DNA from: a virus
Lineage: Duplodnaviria > Heunggongvirae > Uroviricota > Caudoviricetes
DNA length: 13,614 nucleotides
IMG/VR virus record: IMGVR_UViG_2648501498_000002
Direction: 5' to 3' (one strand)
Shown: positions 5,131-6,990 of the stretch, piece by piece
Position numbering within the stretch: position 1 is the first letter of the stretch
How the letters are laid out: each line of letters opens with the position of its first letter
Notes under the pieces: generated by a model
Seen by the model: the letters and a program-made list of their open reading frames with translations, nothing else
Told to the model about the DNA's origin: nothing
Databases searched by the model: none
Program-made: the position numbers and the translations under genes

Positions 5131-5172
5131 CGCCATGATTGCCACGGATGGCAACATATTAACGGCATAATA

Positions 5173-5235
5173 TTGACTTTTTGAATAACTTTGGGGAAAC
5201 TTGACACCAATAATGGGCGTTTTTTACATGTCATT
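5173..5235 (+). promoter_or_regulatory. pR'-like late promoter / qut region
   Basis: The sequence tattgactttttgaataactttggggaaacttgacaccaataatgggcg parallels the lambda pR' region just downstream of Q. Candidate sigma70 elements are TTGACA (5201-5206), a 17-nt spacer and TTACAT (5224-5229). An upstream TTGACT (5173-5178) is the positional equivalent of the lambda pR' -35 but has a poor -10 (gaaact). Confidence 0.45.
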
Positions 5236-5366
5236 GATGAGTCTCAATAACCTGCCGCCGAGTAGTTTTATGCTCTGAATTGTATTTGTGTAGTAAACAT
5301 GCTGACTGCAATGTAATAGAGTTTTTTTAGCCTGTAACCTCTTGACGGCATTGAATTGCTTTTGTT

Positions 5367-6125
5367 ATGAGTTGTAAGCCAATGTTATCATCTTGTATTG
5401 GGGTGGTTATGAAGGATGGTGCGCTGCTCAGGAGTTCTTCACTTTTTATTGCCTACATGGGATGCCTTGGATGGGGGAGTGCTTATTTCTATGGATGGGG
5501 TACTTCTTTTTACTACGGCTTCCCATGGTGGATTGTAGGAGCAGGTGTTGATGATGTTGCCAGAAGTTTATTTTTTGCAGTTATCGTCATTGCTATATTT
5601 CTTATCGGTTGGGGTATTGGTGTTGTATTCTTTTTCGCAGTGAAAAGAAAACATTCTATGCAAGAGCTAAATGTATTTCGCCTTTATTTTGCTGTGGAAT
5701 TATTGTTTGTGCCGGCAATTATTGAGTTTTCTATATTGAGACAGAAGATTCAGGTACCTCTTTTGCTACTGTCAGCAGCGATTGCGCTGGCGGTTACAAT
5801 TTCGATAAGATCTTATGGGCGATTTTTATCGGTATCATGCTTCTATGATAAGCCATTTATAAAAAAACATTTTTTTGAGATTGTGATGATTGCTTTTGTG
5901 GCATATTTCTGGCTTTTTTCATTTCTGACAGGATATTACAAACCGCAGTTTAAGAAAGAATATGAAATGATTAATTATAATGATGGTTGGTATTATGTTC
6001 TTGCTCGTTATGATAATTGTCTGGTTTTGTCTACTTCTTTCAATGCAGGTAGTAAAAGGTTTGTCATTTATCAATCAGCACAAGATAAGAATCTTCAGGT
6101 TGATATTGTAAGGACCAGAATTTAA
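5367..6125 (+). CDS. Hypothetical polytopic membrane protein (about 5 predicted TM helices plus about 60-aa C-terminal domain); cargo gene of unknown function
   Basis: 252-aa ORF in a markedly AT-rich stretch. Hydrophobic segments include LFIAYMGCLGWGSAYFYGWG, LFFAVIVIAIFLIGWGIGVVFFFAV, FRLYFAVELLFVPAIIEFSIL, VPLLLLSAAIALAVTISI and FFEIVMIAFVAYFWLFSFLTGYY, with an aromatic-rich loop (FYYGFPWW). The start is ambiguous: ATG 5367 has no SD, and ATG 5382 and ATG 5409 (preceded by ggggtgg) are alternatives. No family recognised. Confidence 0.55.
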   Translation: MSCKPMLSSCIGVVMKDGALLRSSSLFIAYMGCLGWGSAYFYGWGTSFYYGFPWWIVGAGVDDVARSLFFAVIVIAIFLIGWGIGVVFFFAVKRKHSMQELNVFRLYFAVELLFVPAIIEFSILRQKIQVPLLLLSAAIALAVTISIRSYGRFLSVSCFYDKPFIKKHFFEIVMIAFVAYFWLFSFLTGYYKPQFKKEYEMINYNDGWYYVLARYDNCLVLSTSFNAGSKRFVIYQSAQDKNLQVDIVRTRI

Positions 6126-6372
6126 TTGGCTGCATAAATAATATTTTAAGTTGCAAGTTGGCTATTCGTAGGAATAGAACCTTAGGCATGCTGAATGCGT
6201 TTTCTGAACATTGTTTTATAAACTGTGTCTGCTTGCTGTTGTGATCCTGCTTTTAGTGATGGTGATGATGGATTTCACCAGCAGGATAATGTTGGTACTG
6301 ACTGATGGCGCTCTGGTCTGCGGCATTGTGGTATTGCTGTGGCCGATGATGAAAGAACAGAATGAATAATTC

Positions 6373-6401
6373 TTGACTTTTTTGTTTACTGTTTATTAAA
6401 A
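6373..6401 (+). promoter_or_regulatory. Candidate sigma70 promoter inside the cargo island
   Basis: TTGACT at 6373-6378 followed after 15-17 nt by the A/T-rich -10 candidates tattaa/ttaaaa (6394-6401). The -10 is weak, so this is a sequence-only call. Confidence 0.25.
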
Positions 6402-6555
6402 AATCAACCGCATGGTGAATCCTCCTTGGAGGGGCTAAATGATCGAGTTTTAAGGGCACGTAGCGAGTTCTGTTTGATCATTGCAGAACTTAGCGGGAGG
6501 CGCCATGCGTACATCACTAATGTTATTTCCTTCTATCATTTTCCTTGTGAGTTCT

Positions 6556-6582
6556 GGCTGCGCATGGCGCGGCCTTTTTTTT
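6556..6582 (+). terminator. Rho-independent terminator (tR'-like position, about 400 bp upstream of the holin)
   Basis: 7-bp GC-rich stem ggctgcg (6556-6562) / cgcggcc (6568-6574) with loop catgg, followed by eight T residues (6575-6582). Confidence 0.55.
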
Positions 6583-6760
6583 ATGACCTGCCACTGGCAG
6601 ATGGTCATCCTGTGATTTGATTCCGGTTCCGGCTTTTTAACTCTGTTCCTGTACACGGGAGAAATTCTATGTCGATTAATCGTTATGATATTGGTTACAA
6701 GAAGTACCACGTATTGTGTTGAGATAGAAAGCCTGGTGCCAGAGGTAAATGCAGCAGCAT

Positions 6761-6811
6761 AATAAAAAAGAGCCAGCGCAGAAGAGAACGGGTAAAAGAG
6801 TCTGCGCTGGC
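6761..6811 (-). terminator. Minus-strand hairpin plus T-run (candidate intrinsic terminator or 3' end of a small RNA)
   Basis: Perfect 11-bp inverted repeat gccagcgcaga (6772-6782) / tctgcgctggc (6801-6811) with an 18-nt loop. On the minus strand the hairpin is followed by tcttttttatt (complement of 6761-6771). No T-run follows it on the + strand. Confidence 0.4.
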
Positions 6812-6990
6812 GTGGGGATATTCCCCGTGGAGAAATGATATGTAACACACATCGGGAACCTTTCTATATAAACATTATCATTATTGTCAATCATAACAGT
6901 CAGGTATTATGACGTTTATGCATCAGGGCCATCAGGAATTAACTGGTGGCTTTTTATTGTTGTCAGCTTCCGGATAACGGGAGACGGGGT

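Follow-up and report, generated by a model that had tools for sequence, protein, structure and literature searches.

The Q-to-holin island and its main gene

A stretch of viral DNA of 13,614 nt (IMG/VR record IMGVR_UViG_2648501498_000002, hereafter the window) was analyzed with regard to an AT-rich island at positions 5131–6990 (1860 nt), which extends from the antiterminator gene Q to the holin gene, and to the membrane-protein gene that this island carries. The list of open reading frames (ORFs) and a Pfam scan show the window to be part of a lambdoid prophage, namely its early-right and late region. The marked fall in G+C content between Q and the holin gene reported in an initial annotation of this DNA was confirmed: the island has 39.5% G+C, against about 50% in its flanks (50.8% in Q and 50.3% in the lysis genes S-R-Rz) and 49.8% in the whole window, and by simple arithmetic on its 1860 nt it lies about 9 binomial standard deviations under the window mean. 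In a sliding-window profile, the G+C fraction went down to 0.30–0.43 across positions 5100–6300 approximately, and the main ORF of the island has 36.4% G+C (31% at third codon positions). The same annotation considered that the island held one substantial gene, which turned out to be too narrow a view, as the interval also contains the late promoter PR′ with its qut site, a gene for a DUF3927 protein, terminators on the plus and the minus strand, and the stub of an esterase gene. The main gene is the following:

5409–6125, plus strand: gene of the TfpB/STM1630 family (PF27470, PHROG 1521), coding for a predicted inner-membrane protein of 238 aa

The ORF originally described at 5367–6125 is present in the ORF list, but the start assigned to it at 5367, with a product of 252 aa, was not upheld. 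From the comparison with homologues, translation almost certainly starts at ATG 5409, which is the conserved start. Nearly all the full-length homologues have 236–238 aa, and the RefSeq coding sequence is 717 nt long with a 238-aa product. The upstream ATG is not conserved, and the 252-aa frame was rejected because in two genomic settings other than this one a stop codon comes directly after the counterpart of the 5367 ATG. Between alleles, the ratio of nonsynonymous to synonymous substitution rates (dN/dS) was 0.05–0.18, which indicates strong purifying selection, and therefore a functional gene rather than a chance ORF in AT-rich DNA.

Concerning its identity, the protein is identical to RefSeq WP_001299184.1, named “STM1630 family protein”, and matches PHROG 1521 (function label: unknown) with E = 2e-154. 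PF27470 (short name “TfpB”) is carried by all 103 homologues, the identical protein included, this assignment being taken from the precomputed accessions on the homologues. Among the more distant relatives, the Moraxella “protein tfpB” (the JGI name) was aligned by BLASTP with 29% identity over 220 residues (E = 1e-23), and the Salmonella copy adjacent to sseJ is 46% identical over its full length. The protein had been described as unassignable. This holds in the sense that its labels carry no function, but the family itself is catalogued, as PF27470, as the STM1630 family of NCBI, as PHROG 1521 and as a gene of phage 434.

Scans of the protein and of 50 aligned family members with Pfam, NCBIfam and PADLOC models gave noise only. 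A profile search of 1.84 billion representatives yielded only 76 clusters, all of the same family and with no bridge to a named one, and the clusters looked up for 20 distant members bore no other name than “hypothetical protein”. By taxa, the family occurs in Enterobacterales, Pasteurellaceae (Avibacterium, Gallibacterium, Pasteurella, Actinobacillus, Mannheimia, Rodentibacter and H. ducreyi), Neisseria and Moraxella. The literature searched assigns no function to TfpB, to DUF3927, to the WP accession or to the family identifiers.

Predicted architecture of the TfpB-family protein

Hydropathy analysis (238-aa numbering) gave four clear transmembrane (TM) segments, at about 54–78, 92–110, 115–133 and 155–175, and an N-terminal helix that is weakly hydrophobic and rich in aromatic residues and Gly. 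AlphaFold supplied with 24 close sequences produced a poor model, with a predicted local distance difference test score (pLDDT) of 60. With a better input, an alignment of 50 sequences that included members at 11–29% identity, the AlphaFold 2 model reached a pLDDT of 83.9 and a predicted template modelling score of 0.77. It contains helices at 4–36, 47–79, 84–111, 116–137 and 155–181, followed by a C-terminal, five-stranded beta domain at 184–235. So, by hydropathy and by the model, the earlier description of about five TM helices, an aromatic-rich segment and a C-terminal domain of about 60 aa was essentially right.

The alignments show an architecture shared across the family: about 240 aa, an aromatic helix 1, a YYG(F/Y)PWW loop, several TM helices, an invariant Gly after the last of them, and a small C-terminal beta domain. 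In the conservation profile, the best-conserved regions are helix 1 with the YYGFPWW loop, on the one hand, and the juxtamembrane G-x-Y-K-P-Q motif with the beta domain, on the other. The loops at 79–91 and 134–157 are rich in Lys and Arg. By the positive-inside rule, these loops, together with the layout of helices and strands in the model, lead to a predicted topology with a cytoplasmic N-terminus and a periplasmic C-terminus, in which both best-conserved regions would face the periplasmic side. The model resembled none of the solved structures or of the viral predicted structures, and a profile search of the sequences in PDB gave no match.

Family members outside phages

The family is found in a variety of settings that are independent of phages. 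In Salmonella, the gene (STM1630) adjoins sseJ in a chromosomal, non-prophage location, and synteny is preserved there in the subspecies enterica, diarizonae and arizonae. STM1630 shares with the protein of the window the 238-aa architecture and PF27470, and with its gene the property of being more AT-rich than the surroundings. It differs in its chromosomal position beside sseJ, in having its own promoter and in its differential expression in macrophages. According to published work, STM1630 has its own transcription start and promoter, which is disrupted in ST313 strains, and during macrophage infection its expression is lower in the ST313 strain D23580 than in strain 4/74 (10.1101/450098; 10.1101/689075). 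In a transcription profile of regulator mutants that are avirulent, it also appears in a list with genes of Salmonella pathogenicity island 2 (SPI-2) (PMC2639726).

In E. coli, an allele with 59% identity is found next to the eltAB genes of the heat-labile toxin (LT), close to STb, on contigs of enterotoxigenic E. coli (ETEC) rich in insertion sequences (IS). A 57% allele is placed beside iroBC and bor in E. coli, and a Klebsiella allele is near a two-partner secretion system, an AraC regulator, DsbA and STb. Another setting is that of the Shigella invasion plasmids: 106 of them carry an intact allele of 57% identity surrounded by IS debris, and related copies are present on all those sampled. 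In pWR501, for example, the gene at 135269–135985 has only IS fragments around it. In Avibacterium, Neisseria, Mannheimia and H. ducreyi, the gene stands alone between housekeeping genes that differ from one case to another, the Avibacterium copy being fixed at one chromosomal locus. It is worth mentioning, as a separate observation on the ETEC allele (contigs L005–L008, gene at 6001–6714), that it lies about 870 bp from eltAB in divergent orientation, an arrangement that hints that the LT locus may retain a piece of a lambdoid Q–S cargo region.

In Moraxella, tfpB is directly between oppositely oriented type IV pilin genes, in what we take to be the Piv-invertible pilin segment of M. bovis and M. 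lacunata. The family was presumably named after an unexplained ORF of the Moraxella pilin-inversion locus, in agreement with the position of Moraxella tfpB among pilin genes. To our knowledge, the role of tfpB in M. bovis or M. lacunata was never established. Moraxella TfpB has in common with the protein of the window the aromatic N-terminal helix, the loop (YxGYPWW), the Gly that terminates the last TM helix and the YY(I/V)L beta domain, and the genes differ in that the Moraxella one is embedded between pilin genes. No pilin genes were found beside the members from other organisms, in the neighbourhoods of Avibacterium, Neisseria, Mannheimia, H. ducreyi, Salmonella and E. coli, and no partner gene is conserved across the non-phage contexts. 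The gene was more AT-rich than its surroundings in every host. There are no nearby lysis genes in Salmonella, Avibacterium, Neisseria, Mannheimia or the Shigella plasmids.

The Q-to-lysis slot in phages and prophages

The viral side of the family was studied in the 80 IMG/VR contigs in which the identical allele occurs. All of them had one order: Q, the TfpB-family gene, the DUF3927 gene, an esterase gene present or absent, the S21 holin gene and the endolysin gene. The Q gene was of the lambda type in 44 loci and of the 434/Q82 type, with LpxR upstream, in 32 loci. The DUF3927 gene came next downstream in all the loci with sufficient flank (78/78). The esterase gene was present in 22 of 56 viral loci and absent from the other 34, with a uniform spacing of 869 nt. 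The window represents the common form, with lambda-type Q and the esterase deleted.

Positions 5266–6693 of the window are 98% identical to phages 434 and 2B8. In phage 434 (OL657226), the gene is CPT_434_68, annotated “putative membrane protein” and followed by “TciB”, a small membrane protein and a full-length SASA esterase. It is essentially the same gene as that of the window, but its surroundings are different: 434 has a Q82-type Q, an intact terminator and the full esterase, whereas the window has a lambda-type Q, a decayed terminator and a deleted esterase. Among 5426 complete E. coli genomes, the entire island (coverage of at least 80%) was found in 586 (about 11%), mostly with at least 99% identity. 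The carriers include O26:H11 11368 and O103 strains, of the enterohaemorrhagic serogroups O26 and O103. In a 99.8%-identical E. coli prophage, the 238-aa product bears the RefSeq name. A 3-kb contig binned as “MAG: Veillonella sp.” (L014) has a 100%-identical gene, which is almost certainly a binning error or contamination.

The island had been interpreted as an insertion in the accessory-gene (moron) slot between Q and S, and this was borne out. One and the same allele occurs behind two unrelated types of Q, with or without the esterase, as a discrete AT-rich insertion. HK97-like phages share only PR′ with the island (window 5134–5217), and in phage Evi a TerB-domain gene takes its place. The island is thus a discrete insertion, replaced or absent in relatives and deviant in base composition, as morons are. 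A 68%-identical allele is found in prophages with the order Q, methylase, TfpB-family gene, LpxR, PmrD, esterase and holin. The arrangement Q-methylase-…-esterase-holin is that in which the phages of Shiga toxin (Stx) carry stx, the toxin genes occupying the Q–S position. The other cargo of the slot (stx, the TerB/DUF3927 pair or TciA/TciB, LpxR, PmrD and NanS-p) shares with the TfpB-family gene the position between PR′ and the lysis genes, but the proteins are unrelated. As to the prophages with the 68% allele (L025, 5970–7504), LpxR is a lipid A deacylase located in the same Q–S slot as a PmrD homologue, and a prophage-borne PmrD could rewire PhoP-PmrA signalling.

The gene downstream of the TfpB-family gene is the following:

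6211–6369, plus strand: DUF3927 (“TciB-like”) gene, coding for a mini-protein of 52 aa with two TM segments (Pfam PF13064, 3.4e-14; PHROG 1470)

In Evi, the gene of the DUF3927 mini-protein overlaps the stop codon of the 143-aa TerB-domain gene (PHROG “tellurite resistance”; L116, 3039–3634). The Evi pair looks like the original TciA/TciB, and in the window, where the mini-protein gene lacks a TerB partner, the TerB gene would have been replaced by the TfpB-family gene. DUF3927 was also considered as an obligate partner of the TfpB-family protein and was rejected, since it is missing beside divergent alleles and is paired with the TerB-domain gene in Evi.

Promoters, terminators and expected expression

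The elements relevant to the transcription of the island are the following:

5173–5201, plus strand: late promoter PR′ with qut; −35 box TTGACT at 5173–5178, 17-nt spacer, −10 box GAAACT at 5196–5201
5248–5269, plus strand: remnant of a decayed terminator, aligned to the 434 terminator AAACCCGCTGCCGAGTGGGTTTTTTTT
5341–5391, plus strand: candidate own promoter of the TfpB-family gene, with a CTTGACG box at 5341–5347 and TTGTTA-18-TGnTATCAT at 5362–5391 (consensus scan)
6556–6582, plus strand: terminator T1, the first strong one after PR′; 8-bp stem with 7 G-C pairs, then T8 (−15.2 kcal/mol, z = −3.45)
6925–6960, plus strand: terminator T2, just before the holin gene (−15.7 kcal/mol, z = −4.2); a 434 terminator is annotated at the equivalent place

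The segment 5134–5217 is 90–92% identical to the annotated PR′/qut of HK97, HK106, HK542, mEp234 and mEpX1. The hexamers listed above are those that, by comparison with lambda PR′, we take to be the −35 and −10 boxes, and transcription would start at about 5208. In phage 434, an intact intrinsic terminator sits exactly at the start of the shared module (L001, 2478–2507). At this site, the window and 2B8 differ from 434 by three substitutions and a 5-nt deletion, and the hairpin energy is −2.2 kcal/mol in the window (z = −0.1) versus −12.5 kcal/mol in 434 (z = −3.5). This difference follows the type of Q: the leader terminator is decayed in 44 of 44 lambda-Q loci where the site could be located and intact in 31 of 32 Q82-type loci. 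No other terminator-like element was found in the window between PR′ (about 5208) and T1, which is conserved in 434 and annotated there as a terminator.

In lambda, PR′ is constitutive and gives rise to the 6S leader RNA. The TfpB-family and DUF3927 genes would lie within a 1.35-kb, terminator-free PR′ leader ending at T1, that is to say, in the position of the lambda 6S leader RNA. If PR′ is constitutive as in lambda, both genes would be transcribed in the lysogen without Q, while S-R-Rz, behind T1 and T2, would still require Q. After induction, Q-modified polymerase would read the whole island into S-R-Rz. The decay of the 434-type leader terminator in the lambda-Q lineage makes Q-independent transcription from PR′ possible, and it can be said, from the arrangement of these signals, that the expression of the gene is probably independent of Q. 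The earlier proposal of transcription from the Q-dependent late promoter is, hence, to be refined: PR′ is indeed upstream, but there is no terminator before the gene, so that Q may be dispensable. This marks a difference with stx, which lies downstream of tR′ and depends on Q, whereas the gene of the window, behind a degraded leader terminator, may be expressed without it. The decay of the terminator is a small, concrete example of how cargo of the Stx slot might gain independence of Q, and this bears on the expression of slot genes in uninduced lysogens.

A second possible source of transcripts is the candidate own promoter. A segment of about 70 nt before the start codon, with the CTTGAC(G/T) box in it, is common to the window and to the copies on the ETEC LT plasmid and in the E. 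coli iro island, although their contexts are otherwise different. This conservation across contexts suggests that the TfpB-family gene travels with its own promoter.

Possible role of the TfpB-family gene

It is, on balance, somewhat probable that the TfpB-family gene is a lysogenic-conversion gene of benefit to the host, coding for an envelope protein of the inner membrane. The island would be a swappable cargo (moron) cassette in the lambdoid Q-to-lysis slot, and the protein would act in the host envelope for the benefit of the lysogen and not in lysis or virion production. The arguments for this reading are the phage-independent contexts of the family, its vertical inheritance or fixation, the purifying selection, its retention on degraded virulence plasmids, and the recurrent neighbourhood of envelope and virulence cargo. 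In particular, vertical inheritance in Salmonella, fixation in Pasteurellaceae and purifying selection fit a role in the host envelope better than a defence gene.

Several points weigh against this interpretation. The deletion of STM1630 caused no defect of intramacrophage replication (10.1101/689075). One screen found the STM1630 deletion to be hypermotile (PMC4219756), but STM1630 is not among the altered-motility mutants named in the abstract of the clean-deletion follow-up (PMC4534456). The neighbourhood of virulence genes may only reflect shared DNA that is AT-rich, IS-rich and horizontally acquired. With respect to expression in the lysogen, a constitutive PR′ is carried over from lambda to this phage by analogy, and the promoter-like elements upstream of the gene are weak consensus matches, with no more scan hits than in shuffled sequence.

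The main competing explanation is that of superinfection exclusion or single-gene defence, in which the protein would block the entry of phage DNA or abort infection, like SieA of P22, gp15 of HK97 or Imm of T4. We consider it unlikely, even though a single, self-contained membrane-protein gene in the classic prophage moron slot is what it would predict, and solo insertions at different loci across genera and plasmids form a pattern typical of defence genes. The Moraxella copy in a type IV pilin locus is also compatible with it, given that pili are described as phage receptors, and the pilin-adjacent TfpO and TfpW as anti-phage (PMC11841053). Nevertheless, no PADLOC model matched the protein at E ≤ 0.1, and no known exclusion family was matched among the Pfam, NCBIfam and PHROG annotations. 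Strong purifying selection and long vertical inheritance at the fixed Salmonella locus would be unusual for a defence gene, and the gene is kept on the Shigella invasion plasmids and, in Salmonella, is regulated with virulence genes (PMC2639726). These points tip the balance away from exclusion, although they are not decisive.

By analogy with known pilin partners, the protein could be an accessory of type IV pilins or pseudopilins, which would bind the bitopic pilins, or the pseudopilins of the type II secretion system (T2SS), and tune their assembly (PpdD/HCP, Gsp). The founding member, Moraxella TfpB, is indeed encoded between type IV pilin genes, the family is restricted to taxa that have type IV pili, and one allele is beside eltAB. 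LT is a substrate of type II secretion, exported by the Gsp system. The TfpY, TfpX, TfpZ and FimB proteins are candidate work-alikes, being polytopic inner-membrane proteins of similar size (about 240 aa), pilin-adjacent and with a periplasmic C-terminal beta domain, and TfpY-like proteins bind major and minor pilins and favour the assembly of pili (PMC11841053). This likeness is one of architecture compared by description, not by sequence, and the gene of the window has no pilin neighbour, the linkage to pilin genes being limited to Moraxella. The details of the architecture also disagree, since TfpY has three TM helices and a larger two-sheet domain, made up of a mixed three-stranded sheet, a helix and an antiparallel three-stranded sheet (PMC11841053), while the model of our protein has five helices and a single five-stranded domain of 55 aa. 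Considering all this, a pilin or pseudopilin accessory seems quite unlikely.

A function late in the phage cycle, as an accessory that would adjust the timing of lysis, the function of the holin or the release of progeny, is very improbable: the gene codes for a small polytopic membrane protein and belongs to the late transcript, where the pinholin/SAR-endolysin cassette comes right after it, but two terminators lie between it and S, it matches no holin, antiholin or spanin family (the holin being a separate gene at 6991–7206), it is dispensable in HK97-like phages and in Evi, which have the same lysis genes, and it is conserved in chromosomal and plasmid settings that lack lysis genes.

Returning to the reading of a host-benefiting envelope protein, a bolder version of it would be that the family represents unrecognised, horizontally mobile modulators of inner-membrane envelope machines (pilin-like, pseudopilin or other), combined with a change from Q-dependent to constitutive expression in the lysogen through terminator decay. 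Taken as a whole, we regard this as improbable. If it were true, one fold would be common to a phage moron, the Shigella invasion plasmid, ETEC toxin plasmids, a Salmonella gene coexpressed with SPI-2 and the Moraxella pilin-switch locus, and the modulators would alter surface structures, secretion or susceptibility to phages.

As to what is new in these results, databases already contain this very protein, its family and the island, and cargo is known to occupy the slot. No new kind of system is involved, and with respect to function the principal outcome is negative. Three points appear to be undescribed in the searchable literature: the connection of the phage moron with STM1630, with the copies on Shigella and ETEC plasmids and with Moraxella TfpB; the fold model without a known neighbour; and the terminator decay that tracks the type of Q. 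The gene is very common, yet it has no function assigned in the literature searched. The family link, the confident fold model, the defined start codon and the proposed route of expression make it directly testable.

Flanking genes and minor elements of the island

The flanks and the remaining features of the island are the following:

4507–5130, plus strand: lambda-type antiterminator gene Q, left flank (Pfam Antiterm PF03589, E = 4e-58; 50.8% G+C)
6669–6722, plus strand: 5′ stub (17 codons) of a deleted esterase gene of the SASA/NanS-p type, identified by alignment to the 434 esterase CPT_434_71
6765–6811, minus strand: terminator-like hairpin with an 11-bp stem followed by TCTTTTT (−21.2 kcal/mol, z = −6.45)
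6991–7206, plus strand: S21-type pinholin gene with dual start (MYQMEK…), right flank (Pfam Phage_holin_2_1 PF04971, E = 2e-32)

To the left of the island, the gene order is replication genes, NinB, DNA methylase, NinG, NinI phosphatase (3845–4510) and Q, and to the right, S21-type pinholin, endolysin, Rz, and the small and then the large terminase subunit. No Rfam family and no tRNA gene was detected in the window by Rfam and tRNA scans. Stx phages carry tRNA genes in the Q–S slot.

The esterase stub retains the ribosome-binding site and the first 8–9 codons, which align to CPT_434_71, and then diverges up to its stop codon. The identical deletion joint is found in phage Evi and in 34 of 56 viral loci. 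With regard to the pinholin, the match to PF04971 begins at residue 20 of an 86-aa ORF, and the 434 homologue is annotated as a class II pinholin. Its dual-start motif resembles the 68/71 holin/antiholin pair of S21. The 86-aa ORF in the list starts with a GTG at 6946 and overlaps T2, so this GTG is unlikely to be the real start of the pinholin.

Two other small ORFs deserve mention. RefSeq has a 132-aa “hypothetical protein” on the minus strand at 6450–6848, which spans terminators and the esterase stub. It is Arg-rich, of low complexity and without a family match, and is probably not a real gene. The other is an ORF of 36 codons at 6505–6615, which overlaps T1. The 434 annotation uses another frame at this place (62 aa), and neither frame matches PHROG or Pfam. 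The 36-codon ORF is preceded by a strong Shine-Dalgarno sequence (GGGAGG, 4-nt spacer), and its N-terminus, MRTSLMLFPSIIFLVSSGC, is similar to a signal peptide with a lipobox.

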